Source: Syntrophales bacterium (GTDB lineage: Bacteria; Desulfobacterota; Syntrophia; Syntrophales; UBA2192). Taken from it: a stretch of 49,490 nucleotides of DNA. The DNA lies in NCBI GenBank assembly GCA_035685905.1, contig DASRZY010000228.1:1-49490 (forward strand). Direction: 5' to 3'. The position numbers and the translations under genes are program-made. Under the pieces are notes generated by a model. It was not told the DNA's origin. It saw nothing but the letters and a program-made list of their open reading frames with translations, and did no database searches. Shown in pieces: positions 9,078 to 45,653 of the stretch. Position 1 is the stretch's first letter. Each line of letters begins with the position of its first letter.

Positions 9078-11210
9078 ATGCCCATGAATTTCAAAATCGA
9101 CCGGAACAAATTGCTGATCGCCCTGCTGCTCGTCGCGGCCACGGCGGCCGTATACGGGCAGGTGATCGGCTTCCGTTTTGTCAATCTCGACGACAATCCA
9201 TACGTGCTGGACAATGCCAACGTACTGAAGGGGTTGACCCTGAAGGGTGTCCTCTGGGCCTTCACATCCTTCGACGCCGATTTCTGGCACCCGCTCACCT
9301 GGCTCTCCCACATGCTCGACGTGGAGCTCTGGGGCCTCTGGGCCGGCGGGCATCACCTCACGAGCCTGTTGATACACCTGGCCAACACGGCCCTTCTCTT
9401 CCTTGCCCTGGCGGCCATGACCGGGGCAAATGGCCGGAGCGCGGCCGTGGCGGCCCTCTTTGCGCTGCATCCGCTCCACGTGGAATCGGTGGCCTGGGTG
9501 GCGGAGCGAAAGGATGTCCTGAGCACCTTTTTCTTCATGCTCACCTTGCTGGCCTACGTGAAGTACTGCCGCACAGGCCGGCGGGTTCACTATGGCCTCG
9601 TCGTGCTCGTCTTCGTCCTGGGCCTCATGGCAAAGCCCATGCTCGTCACGGTCCCCCTGGTCCTGTTGCTCCTGGATCTCTGGCCCTTGCGGCGGTTCAG
9701 CCTGCAGGACCTCAGGAGCCCGCGGACCCTTCTTCCGCTTCTCGAGGAAAAGTTGCCGTTTCTCGCGGTCGGATTTCTTTTCGGCATTGTGGCCATTGTC
9801 GCGCAGATCCACAGCGGCGTGGCCTTGCCCTTTTCCGGCGGTTACCCGATGTGGATCCGGATCGTCAATGCCATGGTCTCCTACGGATCCTACCTTGCGC
9901 TGGCCGTCTGGCCCTCGGGGCTCGTCCCCGTCTACCAACACGCGGGTGAAGATGTGTCCCTCTGGAAGGCGGGTGTTTCCGTCGCGGCAATTGCGGCTGC
10001 AGCGGCCTTTGCATGCTGGAAGGCCAGGAAGTACCCCTACCTGATCGTTGGTCTTGCCTGGTATCTGATCACGCTGCTGCCCGTCATCGGGATCCTCCAG
10101 GTGGGCTGGCATTCCATGGCGGATCGGTATACCTACATTCCTCTCATCGGAATCTTCATCGCGGCCGCCTGGGGAATGAACGATCTTGCGGAGGGAAAAC
10201 CCTGGGGGAAGGCCGCCCTGGCCGTCGCAACAGGTGGCGTCATGGGCGCGCTGATGATCGCAACCTGGATCCAGGTCGGGCACTGGAAGGACAGCACCCG
10301 ACTTTTCGAATATATCGTCACGGCAAGCCCGGGAAACGCGCTGGCCCACAACAACCTCGGCTCTGCCTACCAGGGCGAGGGCAGGATGCAGGATGCCATC
10401 GTCCAGTACCACGAGGCCATTCGCATCAAGCCGTACTTCCTGAAGGCCCACGTCAACCTCGCCCTGGCCATGGACCGGGAGGGACGGTCCGACATCGCCA
10501 TCGCCTTTTTCCAGCACGTCATCATGAACTGGCCCCAGTTCGGCGCCGGCTACGCCATGCTGGCCGATATCCTGAAAAAGCAGGAAAAGCCGAGCGAGGC
10601 AATCACGAGATACCTGGAGTCGCTGCAGATCGAGGAGTACCCCGAGGTCCATGTGAGACTGGGCCAGCTTCTGGCCAACGAAGGCAAGACGGAAGAGGCC
10701 GCCTTTCACTTCTACCGCGCCCTGGAGATGCAGCCCGCGCTTGTCGATGCGCGGGTGAATCTGGGGATTCTCCTCCTGCGCAAAGGCATGATCGAGGAAG
10801 CCCGGAAGGAGTACCTCACGGCCCTGCGGTATGCCCCCAATCTTGCTGAGGCTCATTTCAGCCTGGGGAACCTGTACCTGCGGGAAGGAAAGCTTGAGGA
10901 GGCCCACAGGCATCTCTCCGAGGCGGTGAAGGCGAAGCCCGACCACGCCGGCGCACGGACAAACCTGGGTGTGACCCTGGGGCGACAGGGAAAGATCAAG
11001 GAAGCTGCCGCACAGCTGGAAAAGGCCGTTGAACTCAACCCCGGCTCTGCCGAGGCGCGGGACAATCTGGCAAAGGCTTATTGGGTACTGGGGCGCAGGG
11101 ATGAGGCACTGCGTGAGGCTGCCGCCCTCAAGAAGATCAAGCCCGCTGACGCCGAAGCCCTCCGGCTGTGGATGAATTCGAGGGGCGCCGGAACGAATCC
11201 CCGGAACTGA
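9078..11210 (+). CDS. paralogous TMTC-like membrane glycosyltransferase-like protein with a longer TPR tail
   Basis: The N-terminal ~170 aa are near-colinear with 7183..8982 (FVNLDD, FWHPLTWLSHMLD, ALHPLHVESVAWVAERKDVLSTFFFMLTLLAY). Multiple TPRs follow (AHNNLGSAY.., AHFSLGNLY..). Confidence 0.85.
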   Translation: MPMNFKIDRNKLLIALLLVAATAAVYGQVIGFRFVNLDDNPYVLDNANVLKGLTLKGVLWAFTSFDADFWHPLTWLSHMLDVELWGLWAGGHHLTSLLIHLANTALLFLALAAMTGANGRSAAVAALFALHPLHVESVAWVAERKDVLSTFFFMLTLLAYVKYCRTGRRVHYGLVVLVFVLGLMAKPMLVTVPLVLLLLDLWPLRRFSLQDLRSPRTLLPLLEEKLPFLAVGFLFGIVAIVAQIHSGVALPFSGGYPMWIRIVNAMVSYGSYLALAVWPSGLVPVYQHAGEDVSLWKAGVSVAAIAAAAAFACWKARKYPYLIVGLAWYLITLLPVIGILQVGWHSMADRYTYIPLIGIFIAAAWGMNDLAEGKPWGKAALAVATGGVMGALMIATWIQVGHWKDSTRLFEYIVTASPGNALAHNNLGSAYQGEGRMQDAIVQYHEAIRIKPYFLKAHVNLALAMDREGRSDIAIAFFQHVIMNWPQFGAGYAMLADILKKQEKPSEAITRYLESLQIEEYPEVHVRLGQLLANEGKTEEAAFHFYRALEMQPALVDARVNLGILLLRKGMIEEARKEYLTALRYAPNLAEAHFSLGNLYLREGKLEEAHRHLSEAVKAKPDHAGARTNLGVTLGRQGKIKEAAAQLEKAVELNPGSAEARDNLAKAYWVLGRRDEALREAAALKKIKPADAEALRLWMNSRGAGTNPRN

Positions 11211-24822: not shown

Positions 24823-26799
24823 CTATTCCTCCCCCCTCAGCACCATTTCGAGGTTCATCATCTTCTCGGGCGGCCCGACGATGAAGAGGATGTCCTCGGG
24901 TTGAAGGGCAAGCTCTGCCGGCGGGATGGAAACGATCTCCGCGTCGCGCCTCACCGCAAGCACCGTGACCCCGTAGCTGCTTCCCAGCTTTGCCTCGGCG
25001 ATTGTCTTTCCGGCAAGGGGCGATGTCGCATGGACACGAAGCGAGCGAAGATCCATGTCGGGCATACAGGCGCCGATGTTCGGGCACGATGTGGCGTGCC
25101 TCGAGAGATTCCGGAACATGGCGTACCCGTCCGATCGGATTTCCTCCACGAAGCGGTGGATTTCATCCTCCGGCAGGAGGTAGCGTGAAAGAATCCGGCT
25201 GAAGATCTCCACGGAGGCCTCGAATTCCTCGGGGATGACCTCGTTTGCGCCGAGGTCCATGAGGGGCTTGATCTCCTCGCGAAACCGGGTTCGGGCGATG
25301 ATGTGCAGCCTGTGGTTGAGCTTACGGGCGATCGCGGTGATTCTCCTTGCGGCCGCCGCATCGTTGATCGCGATGACCAGCGTCCGGGCCTGCCGGATGT
25401 TCACGTGGCTGAGCACGGCCTCGTGGGTGGCGTCACCGTAGAAGACAGGCTCGCCCTTTTCCCTCTCGTCGCGGACCCGGTCGGGATTCATGTCGAGTAC
25501 CGCATAGGGGATCTTCGTTTCCCGCGCCGCCCTGGCGATGTTTCTCCCCGTCATGCCGAATCCGATGACGACGAGATGTTCCTTCTCGTGGAAACGCTTT
25601 GCGCCGTGGACGTGCGAGGTCCCCCGCTTCCAGCGGCGGGGAAGCGGCAGGCGGGTCAGGGCTTCGGCGATGCGCGGTGAAAACTGAAAAAGGAAGGGCG
25701 TCGCCATCATGGTGAGAATCGAGAGGGCCAGGAACTCCTGGTAGAGATCGTCCGTGAGCAGCCCCTGGCTTCTTCCTGTTTCGGCAAGGATGAAGGAAAA
25801 CTCGCCAATCTGGCAGATGGCAAGCCCTACCAGGGCGGCGGCCCGCAGCGGGATCCCGACGACCAGGGCGGAAGCCGTGGCCAGGACGGCCTTGATCCCG
25901 ATGATCCCCCCGGCAACCATCAGGATGTAGCCGTAATAATTCGCAAGAAATCCCAGATCGAGGAGCATGCCCACGGAGACAAAGAAAAAGCTGGCGAAAA
26001 TGTCGCGGAAAGGAAGGATGTTGCCCATCGCCTGGTGGCTGTATTCATCGGAGATGACAAGTCCGGCCAGGAAGGCGCCCAGGGCCAGTGAGAGGCCGGC
26101 TGCATAGGTCAGCGACGCCACGGCGAGGCAGATGAATACCGTGGTGAGCAGGAAGAGTTCCCGACTCTGCGTCTGTGCGACCTTGTGGAGGATCCACGGC
26201 ACGACCCAGCGCGTGGCGGCAATCGTGAAGAAGACCACACCGGCCGACTTGGCCAGTATGAACAGGATGTTTTCCTGCGACACCTGGGCCGTCCCGCCCA
26301 GGAAGGGCAGGAGGATCATCATGGGGACCACGATGAGGTCCTGATAGATCAGGATGCCCAGGGCGTTGACCCCCTGCGGTGTTTCGACTTCCGCCCGGTC
26401 CTGGAGGAGCTTCATGACAATGGCGGTGCTGCTCAGCCCCGTGAGAAACCCGATGAACACGGACTGGCGCCAGGGCTGGCCGAAGGCATAGGCCACGGCT
26501 GCCGACGCTGCGAGCGTGAGTGCCATCTGGAGGGTCCCGCCGATGAGAGCCGTCCGCCGGATCTCGAAAAGGTTCGCAAACGAGAACTCGAGGCCGATGG
26601 TGAAGAGCAGGGCGATCACCCCGATTTCGGCGAGCGTCGTGACCGCCTCGATGTTGCCGACCAGGCGAAAGCCGTAGGGACCCGTGAGCAGGCCCGTCAG
26701 CAGAAACCCTACAATGACAGGAACCTTGAGCCGGTGGCAGAGGTAGAGCACAGCAGCGGAAAGGCCGATGATGACGAGAATGTCGTGCAGGAAAAACAT
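24823..26799 (-). CDS. CPA2-family monovalent cation:proton antiporter with RCK (TrkA-N/TrkA-C) domains, KefB/KefC-like
   Basis: MFFLHDILVIIGLSAAVL..VPVIVGFLLTGLLTGPYG, then the Rossmann motif VVIGFGMTGR and a C-terminal TrkA-C domain. ATG at 26799. Confidence 0.9.
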   Translation of the reverse strand: MFFLHDILVIIGLSAAVLYLCHRLKVPVIVGFLLTGLLTGPYGFRLVGNIEAVTTLAEIGVIALLFTIGLEFSFANLFEIRRTALIGGTLQMALTLAASAAVAYAFGQPWRQSVFIGFLTGLSSTAIVMKLLQDRAEVETPQGVNALGILIYQDLIVVPMMILLPFLGGTAQVSQENILFILAKSAGVVFFTIAATRWVVPWILHKVAQTQSRELFLLTTVFICLAVASLTYAAGLSLALGAFLAGLVISDEYSHQAMGNILPFRDIFASFFFVSVGMLLDLGFLANYYGYILMVAGGIIGIKAVLATASALVVGIPLRAAALVGLAICQIGEFSFILAETGRSQGLLTDDLYQEFLALSILTMMATPFLFQFSPRIAEALTRLPLPRRWKRGTSHVHGAKRFHEKEHLVVIGFGMTGRNIARAARETKIPYAVLDMNPDRVRDEREKGEPVFYGDATHEAVLSHVNIRQARTLVIAINDAAAARRITAIARKLNHRLHIIARTRFREEIKPLMDLGANEVIPEEFEASVEIFSRILSRYLLPEDEIHRFVEEIRSDGYAMFRNLSRHATSCPNIGACMPDMDLRSLRVHATSPLAGKTIAEAKLGSSYGVTVLAVRRDAEIVSIPPAELALQPEDILFIVGPPEKMMNLEMVLRGEE

Positions 26800-27082
26800 G
26801 CTTGTCCCTCGAGTGAATTGTCCTGAAAAAAGACAAGGCCGCAACCTGACAGAATGACGGATGGCGGCCGGGCGTCTCTCATGAGCTCCGGGTCATGGTT
26901 CGCGGACCTTCACCCTAAAGATATAAAATTCGTTTCTGAAAAGGCAAGGGTTTTCACAGCGTCCCGATTCCCGGGGCCCTGCCTTCGGAGGGTATCCGGC
27001 CGATCCGGTTCACTTTTTTATTTGACATTGATTTTTATCTGTGGTTTTGTAAGCGCAATCCAACCGGGGTACGCATCAGGCA

Positions 27083-27184
27083 ATGGTCTGCAGAAACGAA
27101 TTCAGGGTAAGGGTTGCTTCGGGAAATAGCTACGGCGGCTATTACTATTATAGCTATATCTTACCCGGGTCTGCCCATCGCTGA
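27083..27184 (+). promoter_or_regulatory. candidate Tyr-rich leader peptide ORF (33 codons) of the liv/paaK operon
   Basis: Own translation: MVCRNEFRVRVASGNSYGGYYYYSYILPGSAHR-stop. There are 6 Tyr codons within 9 codons (27131-27157). The SD is weak (agg 2 nt upstream). Confidence 0.35.
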
Positions 27185-27215
27185 ACCTTCTCCGGCAAAA
27201 AGCGAAGAAACAAAG

Positions 27216-27250
27216 ACCACGGGAAAACAAAGAGCCCCGTGGTTTTTTTT
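27216..27250 (+). terminator. intrinsic terminator/attenuator 48 nt upstream of the livK-like start
   Basis: 8-bp stem accacggg/cccgtggt (27216-27223 / 27236-27243), 12-nt loop, then T8. Confidence 0.75.
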
Positions 27251-27297
27251 ATTTTTCATGCCGCGGGGGCAAACCGACAGGAGTCAAGGAGGTCGTT

Positions 27298-28440
27298 ATG
27301 TCAGGAATCCGTTGCAGAGTGTTCTTTTCGTTGCTGTTCGTCGTTTTGACGGCGTGCCCGGCACTGGGGGCCCCTCCCGTCAAGATCGGGGCCCTGTTCT
27401 CCATCACCGGCCCCGCATCGTTCCTCGGCGAACCGGAGCGCAACACCGCTCAAATGGTTGTCGACGAGATCAACAAGGCCGGCGGGATCAAGGGGCGCAC
27501 CCTGGAGCTCGTGACGTATGACACGCAGGGGGATGCCACAAAAGCCGTGCAGGCCGCCACCCGGCTGATCAAGGAAGACAAGGTCGTTGCGATCATCGGT
27601 CCCAGCACGACAGGGGACACGATGGCGGTCATCCCCCTGGTGGAGAAGGCGCAGATACCCCTTGTCTCCTGCGCCGCCGGGATAAAAATCACCGAGCCGG
27701 TCAAGAAATGGGTCTTCAAGACGGCCCAGAACGACTCCCTGGCCGTCGCCCGGATTTACGAACAGCTGAAGAAACGGAAGATCAGCAAGATCGCCGTTCT
27801 GACCGTTTCCGACTCCTTCGGGGCATCCGGGAGAGAACAGCTCACGGCCCAAGCCAGGAGCCACGGCATTCAGATCGTCACGGACGAGACCTACGGGCCG
27901 AAGGACACGGACATGACCGCGCAGCTCACGAAAATCCGGGGCACCCAGGCGCAGGCCATCGTATGCTGGGGAACCAATCCGGGCCCCGCCATTATCGCGA
28001 GGAACGTCAAGCAGCTGGGACTCAACATTCCCCTGTACATGAGCCACGGCGTTTCATCGAAGAAGTTCATTGAACTCGCCGGCGATGCCTCCGAGGGGAT
28101 CATCCTGCCATCCGGGCGGGTGCTGGTGGCAAATCTGCTGCCCAACTCGGATCCGCAGAAGAAAAACCTGCAGAAATTCGTGAAGGACTACCAGGCGCGG
28201 TACAAGGCCGAAGGGGACCACTTCGGCGGACATGCCTGGGATGCCGTCATGCTGTTGAAGGGCGCGATCGAACGCGGGGGCGACTCCCCGGCGGCAATCC
28301 GCGATCAGCTCGAGCAAACTCGAAATTTCAGCGGGATCGGGGGCATTTTCAACTACTCTGCGCAGGACCACGCCGGGCTCACGATGGATGCCTTCGTCCT
28401 GGTGGAAGTGAAGAAAAAAGGCTGGGCCCTCGTGAAGTGA
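27298..28440 (+). CDS. ABC transporter substrate-binding protein, LivK/branched-chain amino acid family
   Basis: Signal peptide, then IKIGALFSITGPASFLG..; RBS aaggagg. Confidence 0.9.
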   Translation: MSGIRCRVFFSLLFVVLTACPALGAPPVKIGALFSITGPASFLGEPERNTAQMVVDEINKAGGIKGRTLELVTYDTQGDATKAVQAATRLIKEDKVVAIIGPSTTGDTMAVIPLVEKAQIPLVSCAAGIKITEPVKKWVFKTAQNDSLAVARIYEQLKKRKISKIAVLTVSDSFGASGREQLTAQARSHGIQIVTDETYGPKDTDMTAQLTKIRGTQAQAIVCWGTNPGPAIIARNVKQLGLNIPLYMSHGVSSKKFIELAGDASEGIILPSGRVLVANLLPNSDPQKKNLQKFVKDYQARYKAEGDHFGGHAWDAVMLLKGAIERGGDSPAAIRDQLEQTRNFSGIGGIFNYSAQDHAGLTMDAFVLVEVKKKGWALVK

Positions 28441-28497
28441 CCCCGTGATCGGCAGAGGATACGACAGGAATCTGCATCGAAGAGGAATCGAGGGCTG

Positions 28498-29382
28498 ATG
28501 GAAACTGCCTCGCAAATCGTTCAATATCTTTTGTCCGGCCTTTCGACCGGAGCCATCTACGCCCTGATCGGCCTGGGGTTTGCCGTCATCTACAACGCCA
28601 CCGGGATCATCAACTTTGCCCAGGGGGAGTTTGTGATGCTCGGCGGGATGCTGACCCTGTTCTTCCTTACGGACATGAACCTGCCGCTGGTGCCCGCGGT
28701 GATGCTGGCCATTTTTTCCTCGACGGCCGTGGGCACCGCCTTCGAGCGTCTCGCCATCAGGCCGCTGAGAAACGCCACCCCCTTGAGCCTGGTCATCATC
28801 ACCATCGGCGCCAGCATCCTGATCCGCGGTCAGGCCATGCTCCTGTGGGGCAAGGACACCCATGCCCTGCCGCCCTTCTCCGGCAGCGACCCCCTGGAGA
28901 TCGCCGGTGCAACCATCCTGCCGCAGCACCTGTGGATCTTTGCCGTCACCATCGTGATCATTGTCGCCAGCAGGCTGTTTTTCACGTACAGCATAGCCGG
29001 CAAGGCCATGCGTGCCTGTGCCTATAACCCCCGGGCTGCAGGTCTCGTCGGCATCGATGTCAGGAAAATGGTTCTTTTCTCGTTCGTCATCAGTTCCGCC
29101 ATCGGTTCCATGGCCGGGATCATCGTTGCCCCCCTCACGATGACCTCCTACGATGTGGGCATCCTGCTGGGGCTCAAGGGGTTTTGCGCAGCGATCATCG
29201 GGGGCATGAGCAGCGGGCTCGGCACGGTGATCGGGGGATTGCTTCTCGGTGTCCTGGAATCACTGGGCGCGGGGTTGATCTCCGCAAGCTACAAGGATGC
29301 CATCGCCTTCGTTGTCCTGCTGGTCATCCTGTTCGTCAGGCCGGAGGGAGTGTTCAAGAAGACGGAAACAGAACGGGTATGA
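28498..29382 (+). CDS. ABC transporter permease, LivH family
   Basis: 294 aa, polytopic, with the INFAQGEFVMLG motif. Confidence 0.9.
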   Translation: METASQIVQYLLSGLSTGAIYALIGLGFAVIYNATGIINFAQGEFVMLGGMLTLFFLTDMNLPLVPAVMLAIFSSTAVGTAFERLAIRPLRNATPLSLVIITIGASILIRGQAMLLWGKDTHALPPFSGSDPLEIAGATILPQHLWIFAVTIVIIVASRLFFTYSIAGKAMRACAYNPRAAGLVGIDVRKMVLFSFVISSAIGSMAGIIVAPLTMTSYDVGILLGLKGFCAAIIGGMSSGLGTVIGGLLLGVLESLGAGLISASYKDAIAFVVLLVILFVRPEGVFKKTETERV

Positions 29383-29469
29383 TTCTCATCCCCGTTGGTC
29401 CTCCCCGCAGGGGCCGGCAGAATATGAAATGCACGGGGGCCTGTGCATCGGCTGTTTAGGGAAGAAGCA

Positions 29470-30444
29470 ATGACGAGGGAAAAACGGAAATTCCTGGCAT
29501 TCGCACTCTTTACGCTGGCGGTCCTGATCGCCCCGCTCTTCTTCCAGGGCAGCTACCTCGTGAATGTGATGGTGTTTGTCGGCATCAACACGATGCTCGC
29601 CGTCGCACTGAATCTCCTGCTCGGGCTGGCCGGTCAGATTTCTCTCGGTCATGCCGCTTTCTTCGGGCTCGGGGCGTACCTGTCCGGCGTTCTCACAACG
29701 GCGTATGCCGTCGGGCCCTGGAGCGCCATGGCCCTGTCGGCCGTTGCGGTCGGGTGTCTTTCCTTCCTGATCGGGTTCCCCATCCTGAAGCTCAAGGGGC
29801 ACTATCTTGCCATGGCGACGCTGGGCTTCGGCATCATCGTCTACATTCTTCTCAATGAAACGGTGGATCTGACCGGCGGGCCGTCGGGACTCTCGGGGAT
29901 CCCCAATCTCTCGATCGGTCCATGGGCCTTCGACAGCGACGAGAAAAACTATTATCTCATCTGGGGCTTTACCCTTCTGACCATGCTTTTGTCGATCAAC
30001 CTGTCCAACTCCAGGATCGGCAGGGCACTCAGGGCCATCCACGACTCCGAAATCGCCGCCCGGGTCATGGGGGTCAATGCCCGGCTCCTGAAAGTCCAGG
30101 TGTTCGCGATCTCGGCCATCCTCTCGGCCCTGGCGGGAAGTCTCTACGCCAGCACGATGACGTTTATCGCACCGGCTTCCTTCGGGTTCAACGTCTCGGT
30201 GGAACTGGTGACCATGGTCATCGTCGGCGGTCTCGGCAGCATCTACGGCTCTTTTCTCGGGGCGGGCATCCTGACCCTGCTTCCCGAGTATCTTCGGGTC
30301 CTGCAGGATTATGATATCGTGGTCTACGGATTGCTGCTGATTGTGATGACGATGTTCATGCCCGGCGGCCTTGTGAGCGGGATTCGGCGGGTCGAGGCGG
30401 CCGCCCGTGCGGGCATGAGAGGAAAGGACCGGACGAATGCTTAG
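29470..30444 (+). CDS. ABC transporter permease, LivM family
   Basis: GQISLGHAAFFGLGAY motif. I preferred the ATG at 29470 over the GTG at 29443. Confidence 0.88.
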   Translation: MTREKRKFLAFALFTLAVLIAPLFFQGSYLVNVMVFVGINTMLAVALNLLLGLAGQISLGHAAFFGLGAYLSGVLTTAYAVGPWSAMALSAVAVGCLSFLIGFPILKLKGHYLAMATLGFGIIVYILLNETVDLTGGPSGLSGIPNLSIGPWAFDSDEKNYYLIWGFTLLTMLLSINLSNSRIGRALRAIHDSEIAARVMGVNARLLKVQVFAISAILSALAGSLYASTMTFIAPASFGFNVSVELVTMVIVGGLGSIYGSFLGAGILTLLPEYLRVLQDYDIVVYGLLLIVMTMFMPGGLVSGIRRVEAAARAGMRGKDRTNA

Positions 30445-31189
30445 ACTGCAGGGCGTAACCAAGGTGTTCGGGGGGCTCACGGCGCTGGAAAATGTGTCTG
30501 TCTCCATGGAGAAAGGCGCCATCACCGGCGTCATCGGCCCCAACGGGGCCGGCAAGACGACCCTGTTCAATATCGTGTCCGGCATTTACAGCCTCACATC
30601 GGGGAGCATCTTTCTGGAAGAGAAAAACATCTCTGGATTTGCGCCGGAGACGCTTGCGACGCTGGGCCTGGTGCGGACCTTCCAGAATGTGGAGCTCTTC
30701 GGGAAGATGAGCGTCCTGGAAAATGTCATGGTGGGTCTGCACACCAGGAGCAGAAGCGGAATCGTTTCCTGTGCCTTCAGGCTGCCGGGCCAGGTCAGGG
30801 AGGAAAAGCGCATCCGGGAGCTCGGCATGAAATGGCTCGAATTCGTCGGCATGGCCGATTCGGCTGATCTGACGGCGGCGAGCCTGCCTTTCGGCAAGGG
30901 CAGGCTTCTCGAGATTGCCCGGGCCCTTGCCGTCGAACCGCGGATCATCCTGATGGATGAACCTGCAGCAGGGCTCAACAGCCGGGAGACGATCGGGCTT
31001 GCCGCACTGATCAAGCGGATCCGGCTCTCCGGCATCACGGTGATTCTCGTGGAGCACGACATGGACCTGGTCATGGACGTCTGTGACAGGGTCGTCGTCC
31101 TGAATCTGGGGTGCATGCTGGCGGAGGGGACTCCGCGGGAGATCCAGGAAAACCCGTCGGTCATCTCCGCGTATCTGGGTGAAGGGTAA
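30437..31189 (+). CDS. ABC transporter ATP-binding protein, LivG family
   Basis: GPNGAGKTT, LMDEPAAGL. 8-nt overlap with the upstream gene. Confidence 0.9.
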   Translation: MLRLQGVTKVFGGLTALENVSVSMEKGAITGVIGPNGAGKTTLFNIVSGIYSLTSGSIFLEEKNISGFAPETLATLGLVRTFQNVELFGKMSVLENVMVGLHTRSRSGIVSCAFRLPGQVREEKRIRELGMKWLEFVGMADSADLTAASLPFGKGRLLEIARALAVEPRIILMDEPAAGLNSRETIGLAALIKRIRLSGITVILVEHDMDLVMDVCDRVVVLNLGCMLAEGTPREIQENPSVISAYLGEG

Positions 31190-31240
31190 CGGGGAAAGAG
31201 TCTCAGGGCCCCGAATTTGACCGATGAAGAGACATCGGAT

Positions 31241-31984
31241 ATGCTGAGAATCAAAAATATCAACACCTATTACGGACAGGTCCATGCCCTGAAAAACGTC
31301 TCCCTGCATTTGCAGGAAGGCGAGATCGTCACGCTGATCGGCGCAAACGGTGCCGGCAAGACGACCCTCCTGAACTCCCTGTCGGGCATTGTGCCCGCCA
31401 AGAGCGGCCAGATCCTGTTTGCGGGCGAGCCCGTCCACGATCTTCCGGCGCACCGGATCGTCGAGGTCGGCGTCTCGCAGGTCCCTGAAGGCCGGCAGGT
31501 TTTCAAACCTCTTGACGTTGCCGACAACCTCGAGCTGGGTGGGTACGTGCGGCGCAGGAAACGGGAGGGCAAAAAAGATATGAAAGCCGCGCTGGCCATG
31601 GTGTATGAGCTGTTTCCCGTGCTCTCGGAGAGGAAAAAGCAGCCGGCGGGAACCCTTTCCGGGGGAGAGCAGCAGATGCTGGCCATCGGACGCGCGCTGA
31701 TGGCGCAGCCGCGATTGCTGCTTCTCGATGAACCCTCCATGGGGCTGGCGCCTCTCATCGTACAGGAGATATTCCGGGTCATCGAGAGCCTGTCGCGGGA
31801 GCGGAAGACGACGGTCCTTCTCGTTGAGCAGAACGCGAGGGCGGCCCTGAAGATCGCCGATCGCGGCTATGTGATCGAGACGGGGAAAATCATTCTCGAA
31901 GGGGCAGCGGCCGAGCTGCTGGAGAACCGCGAGGTCCAGAGGGCCTATCTCGGCAAGGACAAGAAGCAGATCTGGGAACGATAA
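31241..31984 (+). CDS. ABC transporter ATP-binding protein, LivF family
   Basis: GANGAGKTT, LSGGEQQML, LLLDEPSMGL. ATG at 31241 matches the usual MLxIxN..YG start. Confidence 0.9.
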   Translation: MLRIKNINTYYGQVHALKNVSLHLQEGEIVTLIGANGAGKTTLLNSLSGIVPAKSGQILFAGEPVHDLPAHRIVEVGVSQVPEGRQVFKPLDVADNLELGGYVRRRKREGKKDMKAALAMVYELFPVLSERKKQPAGTLSGGEQQMLAIGRALMAQPRLLLLDEPSMGLAPLIVQEIFRVIESLSRERKTTVLLVEQNARAALKIADRGYVIETGKIILEGAAAELLENREVQRAYLGKDKKQIWER

Positions 31985-32013
31985 CGATCGATCCGCCGCC
32001 AGGAGGCTTGGGT

Positions 32014-33318
32014 ATGACTATCTGGGATTCCGCTCGTGAAAGCCTGTCGCGCGATGAGCTCGAACAGCTCCAGCTGGAGCGGCTTCAGGCAACCGTGAAC
32101 CGGGTTTACAAGAATGTGATTCACTATCGGAAGATATTCACGGAACGGGGGATCATCCCGGAGGATATCCAGTCGCTGGCCGATCTGGCACGTCTTCCCT
32201 TCACCACACGGGATGACCTGCGCCTGAATTACCCGTACGGGATGTTTGCCGTGCCGCTCCGGGAAGTCGTCCGCATTCACTCCTCTTCCGGCACGACCAG
32301 CAAGCCCATCGTCATGGGGTACACGAAAAACGATGTCAGGATGTGGTCCAATCTCGTCGCCCGGTTTATGACCGCAGCCGGTGTGACCCGGGACGACCTG
32401 GTCCAGATTGCCTTCAATTACGGTCTCTTTACCGGTGCATTCGGCCTGCATTACGGTGCGGAGACCATCGGCGCATCGGTGATCCCCACGAGCACGGGGA
32501 ATACGGAAAAGCAGATCATGATCATGCAGGATTACAAGACAACGGTGCTGGTCTGCACGCCGAGCTACGCGCTGATCCTGGCCGACCGGATGAACCAGAT
32601 GGGGATCGACCCGAAGGGGCTGTCCCTGAGGGTGGGGCTGTTCGGCGGAGAGCCCTGGTCGGAAGCCATGCGGGCGGAAATCGAAGCCAGGCTGCACCTC
32701 AGGGCGACCGACAACTACGGCCTGTCGGAGGTCATTGGGCCGGGTGTCGCCGGCGAGTGCGCCTGCAGAAAAGGCATGCATCTGTCCGAGGATGCGTTGA
32801 TCCCCGAAATCATCGACCCGGAGACGACAGCCGTCCTGCCGCCCGGGAGGGAAGGCGAACTCGTGCTGACCACCCTCAACAAGGAAGCCTTTCCGATGAT
32901 CCGTTATCGCACGGGGGACTTGACGAGTCTCGACTACGAAACGTGCGACTGCGGCAGAACACTGGTTCGCATGAAGAAAACCATGACGCGCTCCGACGAC
33001 ATGCTCATCGTAAAAGGGGTCAATGTGTTTCCCTCGCAAATCAGGGAAATCCTTTTTGACACGGCGCAGGGTGAAGCCCCGCATCAGATCATCGTCGAAC
33101 GCGAGGCGGCCATGGATGTCCTCGAGGTGAGGATCGAGGTCACGGAACGGATTTTTACCGTCGAGGTTCAAAAGCCCCGGGCTTTCCTGGAGATGTTCAG
33201 GAAACGCATCAAATCCGTGATCGGCATCGATGTCGCTGTCAGCCTGGTCGAGCCGGGCAGCCTGTCCAGGGACGACGCAGGGGTGATCCCGGTCATCGAC
33301 AAGAGGCGGGCATCGTGA
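32014..33318 (+). CDS. phenylacetate-CoA ligase family (PaaK-like / coenzyme F390 synthetase-like) adenylate-forming enzyme
   Basis: LPFTTRDDLR..HSSSGTTSKP..YGLSE.. motifs. RBS aggagg at 32001-32006. Confidence 0.9.
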   Translation: MTIWDSARESLSRDELEQLQLERLQATVNRVYKNVIHYRKIFTERGIIPEDIQSLADLARLPFTTRDDLRLNYPYGMFAVPLREVVRIHSSSGTTSKPIVMGYTKNDVRMWSNLVARFMTAAGVTRDDLVQIAFNYGLFTGAFGLHYGAETIGASVIPTSTGNTEKQIMIMQDYKTTVLVCTPSYALILADRMNQMGIDPKGLSLRVGLFGGEPWSEAMRAEIEARLHLRATDNYGLSEVIGPGVAGECACRKGMHLSEDALIPEIIDPETTAVLPPGREGELVLTTLNKEAFPMIRYRTGDLTSLDYETCDCGRTLVRMKKTMTRSDDMLIVKGVNVFPSQIREILFDTAQGEAPHQIIVEREAAMDVLEVRIEVTERIFTVEVQKPRAFLEMFRKRIKSVIGIDVAVSLVEPGSLSRDDAGVIPVIDKRRAS

Positions 33319-33997: not shown

Positions 33998-34372
33998 ATG
34001 GTGCAACCCGATTTCAAGAAAAGCGGCGGCCTCGTTCCCGCCGTCGTTCAGGACTATGACACGAAGGAAGTCCTGATGCTTGCCTACATGAACGAGCTTT
34101 CGTGGAAGAAAACTCTCGAAACGGGCAAGGCTACCTACTGGAGCCGCTCCCGCAACGAGCTCTGGGTCAAGGGGGAAACCTCGGGAAACGTGCAGAGGAT
34201 CAGGGAGATCCGGATCGACTGCGACAACGACACCATCCTGTTGCTGGTGGACCAGATCGGCAGGGCGGCCTGCCACACGGGGTACCGGTCGTGCTTCTAC
34301 CGGAAGCTGTCCGGCGGCAGCGAGGAAATCGTCGGCGAGCTCATTTTCAACCCGAAGGACGTCTACAAATGA
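33998..34372 (+). CDS. hisI: phosphoribosyl-AMP cyclohydrolase (monofunctional HisI)
   Basis: [39 protein letters not shown]. Confidence 0.9.
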
Positions 34373-35241
34373 AAAAACTGAAACTCGGCATACCGAAAGG
34401 AAGCCTCGAGACCAACACGGTCGATCTGTTCAAGAGAGCCGGCTGGCGGATCAGCTACGACAGCCGCAGCTATTTCCCGGACATCGACGACGAAGAGATC
34501 TCCTGCGCCCTGGCGCGTGCCCAGGAAATGTCCAAGTACATCGAGGCGGGGACCCTTGATCTGGGCCTCACGGGCCATGACTGGGTCGTCGAGAACGAGT
34601 CGGATGTTGTCGTGGTCGAAGACCTGGTGTACTCCAAGGTGCTTGCAAGACCGGCCCGCTGGGTCCTTGTCGTCCGGGAAGACTCGCCCGTGACGAAGAT
34701 CGAGGATCTGCAGGGCAAGAAGATCTCCACGGAACTCGTCAACTTCACGAAACGCTACTTCAAGGAGCGCAATATCGACGTCAAGGTGGAGTTTTCCTGG
34801 GGCGCCACGGAAGCGAAGGTTGTCGAGAGCCTCGTCGATGCCATCGTGGAAGTCACGGAGACGGGGAGCACCATCAAGGCGAATCGCCTGCGCATCGTGC
34901 ACGAGCTGATGCAGACCAACACGCAGCTCATCGCCAACAAGGCGGCCTGGGGAGACCCCTGGAAGCGCCGCAAAATAGAGCAGATCCGCACGATGCTCAA
35001 GGGATCGCTGCTGGGCATGGGGAAGGTGGTCATCAAGATGAACGTCTCCAAGGAGAACCTGGGCCGCGTGATCCTGCTGCTACCCTCCCTGAAGGCGCCC
35101 ACCATCTCGAACCTTTACAACGAGGAGTGGTTCGCCGTGGAGACGGTTGTGGACAGCAGCATCATCCGCGAGTTGATCCCCCTGCTGCAGGAAGCCGGGG
35201 CGGAGGGGATCATCGAGTACGCGCTGAACAAAGTGGTATAA
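34369..35241 (+). CDS. hisG: ATP phosphoribosyltransferase, long form
   Basis: [13 protein letters not shown].., 290 aa including the C-terminal regulatory domain. ATGA overlap with hisI. Confidence 0.9.
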
Positions 35242-35256
35242 GACCAGCGGGCCGCA

Positions 35257-35420
35257 CAGGATTCTCCCGCGAACAGGCTCTTTTCGACCGCTCTACGGTT
35301 CGCTTCGCTGCAGACGCAAAAACTCGCCCTTGCGGGCTCAGACAATTTGCGCTGCGGCCGCTTCGCTTCACCTAGATCGGTTCGCGAAAAGGAGCCTGAA
35401 TTTCGCGTTCCAGAATCCTG
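35257..35420. repeat. ~165-nt imperfect nested palindrome (MITE-like or structured RNA) between hisG and hisB
   Basis: Arms are caggattctcccgcgaacaggctcttttcgaccg (35257-35290) and the rc of cggttcgcgaaaaggagcctgaatttcgcgttccagaatcctg (35378-35420). An inner IR is ctgcagacgcaaa / tttgcgctgcgg, and the central hairpin is gcccttgcgggc. Confidence 0.65.
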
Positions 35421-35451
35421 TCACGGTCCAACGCGTAAAAGGGGAGGGGGC

Positions 35452-36039
35452 ATGGCCAGGAAAGCGAAGATCGACAGGAAGACGTCGGAAACGGACATAC
35501 ACATCCTTCTGGATCTCGACGGAACGGGCAGGGGAAAGATCGCCACGACAATCCCGTTCCTCGATCACATGCTCACACTCATGGCCCGGCATGGCCTGTT
35601 CGACCTGACGGTGAGGGGCAGCGGGGACACGGACGTCGACGATCATCACCTCGTCGAGGACATCGGCATCTGCCTGGGGCAGGCATTCAAAGAGGCGCTC
35701 ACGGAGAAGGAGGGGATCAACCGCTACGGGTCCGCCACGGTCCCCATGGATGAGAGCCTTGCGGCGGTGCACGTTGATCTTTCGGGCCGGACCTACCTCG
35801 TGTACGACGTGAATTTCGGCGCCCGGAAGATCAAGACCTTCGACCTCGCTCTCATCCGGGAGTTCTTCAAGGCCTTTGCCGATCACAGTGGAATGACCTT
35901 GCACGTGAACGTCATGTATGGTAAGAATAATCACCACATCGTAGAGGCGGTTTTCAAGGCATTTGCGCGGGCCCTGCGTGAGGCCGTCACCCTGAACAGC
36001 CGTGTCCGGGGAGTCCTTTCGACGAAGGGGACCCTTTAA
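35452..36039 (+). CDS. hisB: imidazoleglycerol-phosphate dehydratase
   Basis: RKTSETDI..FLDHML..DDHHLVEDIGI..NNHHIVEA. Confidence 0.93.
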   Translation: MARKAKIDRKTSETDIHILLDLDGTGRGKIATTIPFLDHMLTLMARHGLFDLTVRGSGDTDVDDHHLVEDIGICLGQAFKEALTEKEGINRYGSATVPMDESLAAVHVDLSGRTYLVYDVNFGARKIKTFDLALIREFFKAFADHSGMTLHVNVMYGKNNHHIVEAVFKAFARALREAVTLNSRVRGVLSTKGTL

Positions 36040-36167
36040 AATACAGGTTCATTGATGTTCACCGGGAAGACGAAAACAAGGTTCTGAACAGAATCCCGCT
36101 CGTCTCCTTTTTTGTTTCATCATTTCATCCGAACACCGGCCCGAGACACTCCTGGCGGGGGAAACAA

Positions 36168-36857
36168 GTGACGTCCTTTTCGAGAGCCTCTTCTGCGTTT
36201 ATCTACACCCTTTGCATCGTATTCATCGCATTATTCGGATGCGCCTCGAGCACATCGGTGCGCACGTCAGAGACCGGGAAGGAGCCCGTCGTCCCGAAAA
36301 AGATTGCCGTTGTGCCCTTCGAGAAACTGACCTCCGACGACGGCAGCCGGGTAGCCCGCAGCCCCGTCGGCGGGACCGTTTACAGCACGTGCGCCCTGCC
36401 CCAGGATGCCGACCTGATCGTGCAGGAGCTTTTTCTCCAGAAGCTGGAGAAATCGGTCAAGGCTGCAGTCATCCCGCCCTACCAGAGCGACCCCGTTTAC
36501 CGCAGAGTGAAAAGCGACAACCCGAATGCGCCGGTGGTGCAACAACTCCAGATGACAGGCAAGGCCCTCGAGGTCGACGATGTCGTCATCGGCTATGTGT
36601 CCTGTATCCGTGAGCGGGTAGGATACGCATATTCCGCCGAACGCCCGGCATCGGTCACGTTCGGGGTCTACATGATCCAGTCGAGCGATGGGGATCTGGT
36701 CTGGGGGAGAATCTACGACAAGACCCAGCAGTCGTTTTCCGAGAATATCCTGCAGGCCTCAACATTTTTCAGCAGAGGGCTCAAGTGGGTGACGGCGCGG
36801 GAATTGGCGGAAGACGGCGTCGATGAAATACTGAAGACCTTCCCCGGGTATCAATAA
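36168..36857 (+). CDS. putative lipoprotein of unknown function
   Basis: Signal peptide with lipobox ALFGC and a GTG start. I could not assign a family confidently. Confidence 0.65.
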   Translation: MTSFSRASSAFIYTLCIVFIALFGCASSTSVRTSETGKEPVVPKKIAVVPFEKLTSDDGSRVARSPVGGTVYSTCALPQDADLIVQELFLQKLEKSVKAAVIPPYQSDPVYRRVKSDNPNAPVVQQLQMTGKALEVDDVVIGYVSCIRERVGYAYSAERPASVTFGVYMIQSSDGDLVWGRIYDKTQQSFSENILQASTFFSRGLKWVTARELAEDGVDEILKTFPGYQ

Positions 36858-36968
36858 GCACCGGCTGACCGAGAGCAATGCCGGTCCGGCGCTCCACCCG
36901 GGGATTTGCCGCAAACCGGCTTTTTTATATGGATCAGAACCGGGCCACCGGTTCCGGAGCGACTGTCC

Positions 36969-37706
36969 TTGATTATCATCCCGGCGATTGACATCCGAGG
37001 CGGCAGATGCGTCAGGCTCCTCCAGGGGGATTTCCAGCGGGAAACCGTCTACGGTTCAGACCCCGTGGAAGTGGCTCTCCGATGGGCCGCGAAAGGGGCC
37101 GAGCGCATCCACATCGTCGATCTCGACGGCTCCCGCGAGGGCCGTCCCGTCAATGATGCCGTCATCCGGCGGATCCTGTCCTCCGTCAGTGTCCCCATCG
37201 AACTGGGCGGCGGTATCCGGGATATCGGCACGGTGGACTACTACATCGGGTTAGGGGTGCAATGGACAATTCTGGGCACGGCGGCACTCAAGAACCGCGA
37301 CTTCGTCGGTGAGGCCTGCCGCCGCTTTCCGGGCCGGATCATCCTCGGCATCGACGCGAAGGACGGAAAGGTCGCCGTCGAGGGCTGGACGGAGGCAACA
37401 GGGGCGGACGCCCTCGAAGTGGCCAGGCGGTATGAGGGAATCGGACTTGCCGCCATCGTCTACACGGACATCAGCCGCGACGGCATGGAAACGGGGGTGA
37501 ACGTGCCCGCCACCGAGCGCCTCGCCCGTTCCGTAGCGATCCCCGTCATCGCCTCGGGCGGTGTCGCCGGGATGGGCGACATCGAGAGGCTCCTCGCCGT
37601 GGCTGCCCCCGGCATCCTGGGTGTGATCACGGGCAAGGCTCTATACACCGGAGCCCTCGACCTGGGAGAGGCGATCCGGAAAACGAAAGCCGGCAACCCC
37701 CGCTAA
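36969..37706 (+). CDS. hisA: 1-(5-phosphoribosyl)-5-[(5-phosphoribosylamino)methylideneamino]imidazole-4-carboxamide isomerase
   Basis: IIPAIDIRGGRCVRLLQGD..VDLDGS..GGGIR..ASGGV. TTG start at 36969. Confidence 0.88.
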   Translation: MIIIPAIDIRGGRCVRLLQGDFQRETVYGSDPVEVALRWAAKGAERIHIVDLDGSREGRPVNDAVIRRILSSVSVPIELGGGIRDIGTVDYYIGLGVQWTILGTAALKNRDFVGEACRRFPGRIILGIDAKDGKVAVEGWTEATGADALEVARRYEGIGLAAIVYTDISRDGMETGVNVPATERLARSVAIPVIASGGVAGMGDIERLLAVAAPGILGVITGKALYTGALDLGEAIRKTKAGNPR

Positions 37707-43672: not shown

Positions 43673-44066
43673 GTGTCGGAGCAGGCTGTAAGCCGAGTTT
43701 TGTTCCCCCCCTCGGTCACCCTCCGGGGGGCGATGATCATTAATCTGGGACAGCAGTTGCCTGCTGCCTCAAGCGACCTACCCGGGAGCTCGGGCGGGCT
43801 ACCCTCAAGCGCTCCCCTACATGGTCTTGCTCCGGATGGGGTTTACCTTGCTTCCCCGGTCACCCGGGGAACGGTGAGCTCTTACCTCGCCTTTTCACCC
43901 TTACCCTTCAACTCGGCCTGACGGCCTCGCTCAAGGGCGGTATGTTTTCTGTGGCACTTTCCCTGGGGTCGCCCCCGGTCGCCGTTAGCGACCATCCTGC
44001 CCTGTGGAGCTCGGACTTTCCTCCAGCCTCGTGTTGGGCCAGCGATCATCCTGCCTGCTCCGGCAC
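43673..44066 (-). ncRNA. rnpB: RNase P RNA, bacterial type A
   Basis: The minus strand reads ..CGGAGCAGGC..GAGGAAAGTCCGAGCTCCACAGGGCAGG..GGGAAAGTGCCACAGAAAACATACCGCC..AGGTAAGAGCTCACCG..GGTAAACCCCATCCGGAGCAAGACC..ACAAAACTCGGCTTACAGCCTGCTCCG. The P1 halves are at 44053-44062 and 43677-43686. The ends are approximate, within a few nt. Confidence 0.92.
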
Positions 44067-45577: not shown

Positions 45578-45653
45578 TGGTGGGCCCACCTGGGTTCGAA
45601 CCAGGGACCGACCGGTTATGAGCCGGTGGCTCTGCCAATTGAGCTATGGGCCC
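45578..45653 (-). tRNA. tRNA with CAU anticodon (Met or, more likely, lysidine-modified Ile2), CCA encoded
   Basis: The minus strand GGGCCCATAGCTCAATTGGCAGAGCCACCGGCTCATAACCGGTCGGTCCCTGGTTCGAACCCAGGTGGGCCCACCA folds into a perfect cloverleaf by hand. Confidence 0.95.

Follow-up and report, generated by a model that had tools for sequence, protein, structure and literature searches.

Attenuation through translation of a leader peptide is known for tryptophan, phenylalanine, histidine, leucine, threonine and isoleucine/valine, and the trpL and hisL leaders are 14–16 codons long. For tyrosine, the attenuation of tyrS in Enterococcus is of the T-box type, and the attenuators of the Bacillus tyrA operons are probably T-boxes as well. 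Here we describe a 49,490-nucleotide stretch of a Syntrophales bacterium (assembly GCA_035685905.1, contig DASRZY010000228.1; "the window" below means this whole stretch) in which a short open reading frame (ORF) with a run of Tyr codons is followed by a terminator and then by an operon coding for a Liv-type importer and a PaaK-like coenzyme A (CoA) ligase. We propose, as an earlier sequence-only reading of the same DNA had done, that this leader is a ribosome-mediated transcription attenuator that senses the supply of charged tRNA-Tyr; judging from comparative sequence analysis and modelled folds we put the probability of this at roughly 0.78. It would then be a Tyr-specific form of the classical leader-peptide attenuator, lying outside every curated RNA family.

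The proposed attenuator resembles E. coli trpL and the other classical four-region attenuators (his, leu, thr and ilv) in the clustering of codons for one amino acid within a short ORF predicted to be translated, in mutually exclusive 1:2, 2:3 and 3:4 pairings with a stop codon placed so that a terminating ribosome would mask region 2, and in a Rho-independent terminator before the first structural gene. It differs in that its codons specify tyrosine and that its ORF is longer, at 33 codons; the terminator loop of the family to which it belongs (called type A here) is large, at 10–15 nt, and in most members forms part of the antiterminator partner, and the target is an uptake and CoA-ligase operon, whereas the classical targets are biosynthetic. 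There is no homology to the classical attenuators in either sequence or structure.

In the pheA and pheST leaders of gamma-proteobacteria (pheL and pheM), repeated codons similarly serve to sense an aromatic amino acid (for pheL, PMC3082878), but these leaders use Phe codons, have a biosynthetic enzyme or tRNA synthetase as their target, and come from a different phylum; the Rfam Phe leader models gave no match to the window at E≤10. Tyr T-box leaders, such as those of tyrS in Enterococcus and Bacillus, answer to the same signal, with tRNA-Tyr charging deciding between terminator and antiterminator (PMC3315439; PMC1262725); a T-box RNA, however, binds uncharged tRNA directly and without translation, whereas in the Syntrophales leader the ORF would carry the sensor, and the Rfam T-box model has no match within 26780–27320 even at E up to 10. 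Enterococcus tyrS was described as subject to tyrosine-dependent attenuation (PMC3315439), and a comparative study of Actinobacteria refers to T-box regulation of tyrosine in other species (PMC1262725). Attenuators predicted before tyrA operons (Merino database, PMC1173090) likewise tie terminator/antiterminator pairs to tyrosine metabolism, but these are generic structures for which no Tyr-codon leader peptide is named, and they precede biosynthetic genes and not a transporter operon. A survey of ORF-dependent attenuators predicted new cases for Cys and Phe and none for Tyr (PMC8632094).

Among Rfam leader models the best plus-strand match is His_leader (RF00514), with 18.5 bits against a threshold of 49 (E 1.3), and the top match overall is a ylbH leader on the minus strand, with 21.2 bits against 50 (E 0.028); there are no leader matches at gathering level in the window or in eight related loci. 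Neither Rfam 15 nor the literature that could be searched, which did not include subscription journals, yielded a Tyr-codon leader peptide, so that an earlier prediction is possible; where that literature describes control by tyrosine through RNA, it is T-box based. A conserved Tyr version would fill a gap in the list of amino acids and extend the mechanism to the Syntrophales, a group with almost no genetics. The parts of the proposed attenuator are as follows.

27010–27050, plus strand: promoter-like block, with a T run at 27014–27019, a −35 TTGACA at 27022–27027, a 17-nt spacer, TGn at 27042–27044 and a −10-like TTTTGT at 27045–27050
27083–27184, plus strand: leader ORF, 33 codons and TGA, whose peptide, read directly, is MVCRNEFRVRVASGNSYGGYYYYSYILPGSAHR
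27131–27157, plus strand: candidate regulatory Tyr codons, TAC at 27131, TAT-TAC-TAT-TAT at 27140–27151 and TAT at 27155
27083–27112, plus strand: region 1, consisting of AUGG (27083–27086), GCAGA (27090–27094) and GGGUAAGG (27105–27112); partner of region 2 in the ribosome-free leader
27160–27178, plus strand: region 2, CUUACCC-GGG-UCUGC-CCAU; partner of region 1 or, through CCCGGGUCU (27164–27172), of region 3
27212–27223, plus strand: region 3, the terminator 5′ arm AAAGACCACGGG, in which AGACC-A-CGGG (27214–27223) is the antiterminator partner of region 2
27236–27250, plus strand: region 4, the terminator 3′ arm CCCGUGGU and the U tract (T8, 27243–27250)

The coordinates, translation and TGA stop (27182–27184) of the ORF are as first reported, and all six of the Tyr codons claimed within nine codons are present (27131–27133, four consecutive codons at 27140–27151, and 27155–27157). 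This leader is the single site in the 49.5 kb window, in all six frames, with at least four Tyr codons among nine stop-free codons; given also that Tyr triplets make up 1.3% of the triplets of the window, which is 60% G+C, the cluster is not an effect of composition.

The four RNA segments also lie where the sequence-only reading placed them (GGGTAAG at 27105–27111, CTTACCCGGGTC at 27160–27171, GACCACGGG at 27215–27223 and CCCGTGGT at 27236–27243), as does the run of eight T residues at 27243–27250. The leader as a whole (27060–27260) folds at −66 kcal/mol (z −3.4) into a structure containing both the 1:2 stem and the terminator. The 3:4 terminator is a 12-bp stem (27212–27223 with 27236–27247) that with its U8 follows the leader ORF and precedes the first structural gene; on its own it has −17.4 kcal/mol (z −5.0), and it was not called by a consensus terminator scan because its loop is 12 nt in the window and the scan allows 3–8. 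The 2:3 hairpin folds exactly as drawn, with CCCGGGUCU (27164–27172) pairing with AGACC-A-CGGG (27214–27223) at −21.0 kcal/mol (z −2.8), although its register is common only to the window and one close relative (L207; L numbers are our designations for related loci) and is not that of most family members. The 1:2 pairing is present in the minimum-energy fold but had been drawn too small, since AUGG and GCAGA at the start of the ORF also pair with UCUGC and CCAU at its end; the complete domain has −22.8 kcal/mol (z −2.2). Region 2 ends 4 nt upstream of the stop codon.

The behaviour of these pairings around a ribosome was modelled on 14 leaders by covering the 12 nt that follow the first base of the A-site codon and forbidding pairing across the ribosome from behind. 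When the A site holds a Tyr codon from the middle of the run, the antiterminator forms in 14/14 leaders in the RNA as it stands before the terminator 3′ arm is made, at −12 to −26 kcal/mol, and it sequesters 3–6 of the 7 core nucleotides of the terminator 5′ arm; the window leader has −21.0 kcal/mol, with six of the seven sequestered. When the A site holds the stop codon, the antiterminator forms in none of the 14, nothing stabler than −3.7 kcal/mol is found, and the terminator is the sole remaining option; a ribosome at this position would, if a standard footprint is assumed, cover about 27167–27197, including the 3′ part of region 2. In the ribosome-free leader the minimum-energy fold combines 1:2 with 3:4. 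The three states, as modelled, are those of the classical trp-type scheme, and the mutually exclusive pairings and masking geometry proposed from the window alone agree with the ribosome-masked folds of all 14 leaders.

The predicted course of events is then a familiar one. Transcription would start near 27057, and the 33-codon leader would be translated as it emerges. When charged tRNA-Tyr is plentiful, the ribosome would reach the stop codon at 27182 and cover region 2 (27160–27178), so that region 3 pairs with region 4 and RNA polymerase stops at the U tract, at about 27250. When it is scarce, the ribosome would stall with its A site on one of the Tyr codons at 27131–27151 and thereby separate regions 1 and 2; region 2, left free, would pair with region 3 once this is made (CCCGGGUCU with AGACC-A-CGGG), no terminator would form, and transcription would read through into the operon. 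If the leader is not translated, regions 1 and 2 would pair and the terminator would again form. From the sequences we infer both coupling of ribosome and polymerase and a response of the operon to tyrosine, and the comparative tests that follow, together with the ribosome-masked folding, support the interpretation as a Tyr-sensing attenuator.

Relatives of the leader were sought in several ways. LivK relatives were scanned in one genome per species, giving 80 loci from Syntrophales, Smithellaceae and Geobacterales, six of which (L014, L026, L027, L035, L048 and L069) have a homologous short Tyr-run ORF before LivK and at equal distance from it; MVSRNDYSINNKLNRNYYGYYYYYTVAYRSARH is an example of the encoded peptides. 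A metagenome scan with a pattern describing the terminator stem only returned 120 stretches, four of which are new type A members (L118, L125, L173 and L178); the rest are unrelated terminators, among which only L121 and L140 (at the end of a permease gene) have five Tyr codons in nine and L155 has four, all others having three or fewer, and because these matches are mostly poor in Tyr the run is not a general neighbour of such a stem. The closest LivK relatives of the window (L202–L207, 93–96% identical) all have the leader, the six loci contributing four distinct versions with peptides that include MVCRNEIRARVASGNSYGGYYYYSYLLPGSAHR and MGYRKEIRARVASRNSYVGYYYYSYILPGSARR. In total there are 14 leaders besides that of the window, all of them before LivK orthologues and drawn from Syntrophales and Smithella genomes and from metagenomes; exact look-up of the window LivK found only one other contig, on which the leader is identical. 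A profile hidden Markov model built from ten leaders outside the window subfamily has a single match in the window, at 27082–27249 with E 6.4e-17, which shows that the window leader belongs to the conserved type A family. The conservation of a short Tyr-run ORF and terminator at orthologous liv-paaK loci, which the sequence-only reading had offered as a check, is thus seen.

The pattern of conservation within the ORF is informative as to what is being maintained. All 15 leaders begin with ATG or GTG at one and the same alignment position and end with TGA or TAG. They range from 31 to 35 codons, differing in length by 3 or 6 nt (multiples of three), and the other two frames are closed by stops in the 11 leaders of the alignment; start, stop and frame are retained in the four close relatives of the window leader too. 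Five codon columns are Tyr in all leaders, each of them mixing TAT and TAC, and changes between the two occur even among the nearest relatives of the window (L203 and L204). Outside the Tyr columns nonsynonymous codon-pair differences number 1724 and synonymous ones 434, and these differences fall evenly on the three codon positions. Selection therefore appears to act on a few codons and not on the peptide as a whole, as expected of a leader peptide and not of a small protein with a function of its own or of an element that acts purely as RNA, and we infer from this that the leader ORF is translated.

These data bear on the idea that the ORF is a gene in its own right, coding for a small Tyr-rich peptide (a signal or a modified-peptide precursor) and having its own terminator, and that liv-paaK is expressed from a separate promoter. 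The preserved length of the ORF, the conservation of some positions other than Tyr (N5 and G19, for example), the strong terminator that follows, and the annotation by a public gene caller of the homologous 33-amino-acid ORF in L203 would all suit such a gene; against this, the non-Tyr positions change freely with nonsynonymous differences far in excess of synonymous ones, the gap between the U tract and LivK is just 47 nt and shows no promoter-like site, and a covarying pairing between the end of the ORF and the terminator 5′ arm (see below) would go unexplained. Moreover, a phmmer search with the 33-amino-acid peptide against 1.84 billion protein representatives gave one irrelevant match of 312 amino acids and no relatives. 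We consider a peptide gene of this type very improbable.

The helices of the proposed attenuator are conserved as well; those other than the terminator were specified by hand and then counted on the 11-sequence alignment. All 11 stem pairs of the terminator are paired in 11/11 leaders, with one compensatory change from G:C to A:U. The antiterminator in its usual register pairs CGAUCUaCCCG, which lies in the last part of the ORF, 4–6 nt before the stop, with CGGGuAGAUcG, which in most members consists of the last G residues of the terminator 5′ arm and the terminator loop. It is paired in 84% of cells, compared with 26–40% when the partner is slid by one to three columns; four of its pairs change on both sides, and one position is A:U, G:U or G:C according to lineage. 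GCAGA, close to where the ORF begins, pairs with UCUGC, close to where it ends, throughout the type A family, the stem enclosing the Tyr run and an inner hairpin are likewise conserved, and the 1:2 and inner helices have 78–84% of cells paired, compared with 31–48% when the whole structure is slid.

The window subfamily offers a closer view of how the antiterminator is maintained. L202–L206 have the usual register, GGUCUGCCC with GGGCAGAUC, whereas in the window and L207 CAG has been lost from the loop and there is instead G27215, found only in these two, which gives the pair C27171:G27215; the register switches along with the loop sequence, and the antiterminator is thus preserved in another register. 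At position 27108:27163 of the 1:2 stem, the window, L203 and L204 have U:A, L202 has C:A and L207 a compensatory C:G. The alternative pairings are thus retained in orthologous loci, with compensatory changes, as the attenuator reading had predicted.

A leader this well structured (z −3.4), with a mean column identity of 76% and, in the AT-rich members, Tyr codons that form one strand of a long stem, might also be a metabolite- or protein-binding RNA, similar to a riboswitch or an operator, that controls the terminator while the ORF is incidental. The retention of start, stop and frame, the confinement of indels to multiples of three and the closure of the other frames are not accounted for in this way; nor is the restriction of the invariant Tyr columns to TAT and TAC even though the local pairing differs between subfamilies, or the position of the upstream antiterminator arm, which is always just before the stop and at ribosome-footprint distance. 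As there is in addition no match to an Rfam family, T-box and known riboswitches included, we give a ligand-binding RNA little credence.

In the AT-rich type A leaders (L027, L173, L026 and those related to them) about half of the codons are NAY, specifying Asn, Asp, His or Tyr; by our own count these make up 16/33 leader codons in L027, and they are the codons read by queuosine-modified tRNAs. Such leaders raise the question of whether the attenuator could respond to the decoding state of tRNA-Tyr, for example its queuosine modification, or to general translation capacity, particularly as any slowing of Tyr decoding would yield an equal output. The window subfamily, however, is enriched in Tyr only (nine of the 33 window codons are NAY, and six of these nine are Tyr), the Tyr columns alone are invariant, and the operon has no visible link to queuosine and is linked instead to aromatic acids. 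The NAY richness is probably a composition effect of the AT-rich leaders, without counterpart in the window subfamily, and a decoding-state signal of this type seems quite unlikely.

Several observations weigh against this interpretation of the leader. The window lacks the usual antiterminator register of the family and shares its own only with L207, possibly as the result of a single event; about seven independent lineages are represented, and the covariation statistics are modest for that reason; and RNAalifold, used alone on the 11-leader alignment, predicted the terminator only. With a stalled ribosome, the full-length window RNA prefers the terminator at equilibrium (−27.7 kcal/mol), so that the antiterminator must win kinetically, by forming first; in L035, L118 and L178 it is favoured thermodynamically too. 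A ribosome stalled at the last of the six Tyr codons (27155) would partly cover region 2. The Shine-Dalgarno sequence of the leader ORF, already named as a weak point, is indeed poor in the window (AGG two nucleotides before the ATG) and in its close relatives, being better in L048 and L125. Lastly, a consensus promoter scan called no promoter upstream, the −10 being non-consensus.

The uncertainty about the promoter had also been raised from the window alone, and we agree with it as far as the −10 is concerned; the block was not called by the scan because its −10 lacks an A at position 2. The promoter block is nonetheless present in all type A leaders examined, with a TTTAYN-like −10 (TTTACG, TTTACA, TTTAAA, TTTATA or TTTTGT), and this conservation answers the doubt only in part; the block would place the transcript start near 27057. 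The upstream gene, for a Na+/H+ exchanger with TrkA domains, is on the minus strand, with its start near 26799 and its end at 24823, so that the 498-nt gap upstream of the operon is a divergent promoter region and the terminator lies inside the 5′ leader of the plus-strand operon.

Four loci (L033, L042, L063 and L066) have, in the last ~150–250 nt before LivK, a promoter block of the same kind (TTTGACA ... TATCTGTGATTTAC or similar) without the leader ORF or the terminator, just downstream of what is by eye the 3′ end of a histidine-kinase-like gene. Because they keep the promoter block and have no leader, the type A leader looks like a module that was acquired or lost behind a single promoter. 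Immediately before the −35 in the window there is also a small hairpin rich in G+C, GGCCGATCCGGTT, with CACTTTTTT after it (26998–27019); the hairpin recurs in the L026 group and the T run occurs in all relatives, and the element may be a UP-element-like T tract or an insulator terminator acting against upstream transcription.

The operon that would be regulated contains the six genes listed here, and Pfam confirms the set named in the sequence-only reading, a LivKHMGF-type importer followed by a PaaK-family ligase.

27286–33318, plus strand: operon, with Shine-Dalgarno sequence AAGGAGG at 27286–27292 and then six genes
27298–28440, plus strand: LivK-type binding protein
28498–29382 and 29443–30444, plus strand: permeases (LivH and LivM)
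30437–31189 and 31217–31984, plus strand: ATPases (LivG and LivF)
32008–33318, plus strand: PaaK-like aryl-acetate-CoA ligase

The operon ends at 33318, with the next gene on the opposite strand, and the five liv genes and paaK are together also in L208, which has a type A leader, and in L209, which has a different leader (type B) described below. LivK relatives are numerous, with 6866 at E≤1e-100 among 8000 candidates scored.

What the operon transports is suggested by the nearest structures of its binding protein, which are the aromatic-acid binders of Rhodopseudomonas palustris (3sg0, 4dqd, 3uk0, 3ukj and 3tx6, E 1e-43 to 1e-38), compared with E 1e-15 for LivJ and LivK structures; the protein scores 104.5 bits against the NCBIfam LIV model NF011933, for which the cut-off is 477, and the Liv label is, from these sequence comparisons, a fold-level one only. 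One of these binders, CouP (3tx6/4f8j), binds coumarate, ferulate and 4-hydroxyphenylpyruvate with nanomolar affinity (PMC3610893). The ligase is strongly PaaK-like (2y4o, E 3e-126).

In the Geobacter-type loci L010 (357–2861) and L079 (1–2912) an orthologous LivK gene follows iorB, a PaaK-like ligase gene and an ACT-pair gene; here we read the POR/TPP-Fer4 genes as iorA and iorB, the range covering iorB and the C-terminal end of iorA (seen in L079). Many Geobacter-type loci have two tandem LivK paralogues. The iorAB-paaK-ACT-livK clustering ties the transporter to an indolepyruvate-type ferredoxin oxidoreductase (IOR), and in Methanococcus maripaludis aryl acids are converted to aromatic amino acids by way of indolepyruvate oxidoreductase (Porat et al., as cited in PMC4162585). 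We found no paper on a liv-paaK-IOR cluster in Syntrophus in the searchable literature. The aromatic link that had been suggested for the operon is therefore supported, by its nearest binding proteins and by the Geobacter-type clusters.

A route can be sketched in which an aromatic acid, for example 4-hydroxyphenylacetate, enters through the importer, is converted by the ligase to the CoA thioester and passes to an IOR-type enzyme for reductive carboxylation to 4-hydroxyphenylpyruvate, which is then transaminated to tyrosine. Induction of the operon by Tyr starvation would fit such an anabolic role, and we advance the route tentatively, at somewhat less than even odds. The tie between operon and tyrosine is circumstantial and this too counts against our interpretation, as do the absence of an IOR gene from the window, L208 and L209 and the score of the ligase against the PaaK equivalog TIGR02155, 531.6 bits where the cut-off is 646.3; the ligase may have a substrate different from that of PaaK.

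The Tyr codons can be regarded as a functional label, indicating that the importer and the PaaK-like ligase are wanted when tyrosine is short. This label suggests that syntrophic anaerobes salvage aromatic acids to make amino acids, and provides a testable annotation for thousands of similar operons. The widest claim, that this is the first described family of tyrosine-sensing leader-peptide attenuators and that it marks the widespread liv-paaK operons of syntrophic and metal-reducing anaerobes as a salvage route from aryl-acetate to Tyr, is in our view doubtful as a whole; were it true, salvage would replace branched-chain amino acid uptake or aromatic catabolism as the reading of these operons.

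The closest genome-level orthologues of the operon (L001–L006, L018, L020, L025, L028, L034, L047 and L209) have a different upstream element, unrelated to type A, which we call type B.

~110–290 nt upstream of the LivK start in 12 loci: type B element; in L209 at 9760–9862

Its short ORF is very variable in both length and sequence and ends in Tyr-X-Tyr-stop in 11/12 loci, ten of which have Tyr-Met-Tyr and one, L006, Tyr-Lys-Tyr; the ORF of L047 continues past Tyr-Met-Tyr. The stop (TGA or TAA) lies one nucleotide before a conserved hairpin GCCUGCU...AGCAGGC, with the consensus GCCUGCUG(Y)CC-loop-GG(G)YRAGCAGGC, after which there is no U tract but instead a stretch rich in A and C and poor in G. 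Three of the type B loci (L001, L002 and L018) were scanned with Rfam and gave no match. The occurrence of a second Tyr-linked upstream ORF on the same operon makes the tie to tyrosine stronger, and type B may sense Tyr by a mechanism of another kind, such as one that is Rho-dependent or based on an arrest peptide.

The biopterin-dependent aromatic amino acid hydroxylase family includes the enzyme that makes Tyr from Phe. On the minus strand of the metagenome contig L155, in the stretch from about 300 nt upstream to 60 nt downstream of the terminator-pattern match at reverse-complement position 927, there is a GTG-start ORF, VHSCWLFHLNTHSYYSYGYRRRETAGHGWRPLLEK, with four Tyr codons in seven, followed by a terminator (GCCACGGG..CCCGTGG, then T6); 34 nt past this terminator is a gene for a hydroxylase of this family (Pfam Biopterin_H, E 1e-32). 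By its sequence L155 is a possible independent Tyr-codon attenuator, as a single case.

Elsewhere in the window, the operon is followed by histidine biosynthesis genes at 33998–37706 (a hisI-like gene starting at 33998, HisG, IGPD and His_biosynth). The his neighbourhood is found in L209 also, in the opposite orientation, and the window and L209 are thus syntenic despite their different leader types. A bacterial class A RNase P RNA (43674–44061, minus strand, 312.7 bits) and a tRNA gene (45581–45653, minus strand) are ordinary.

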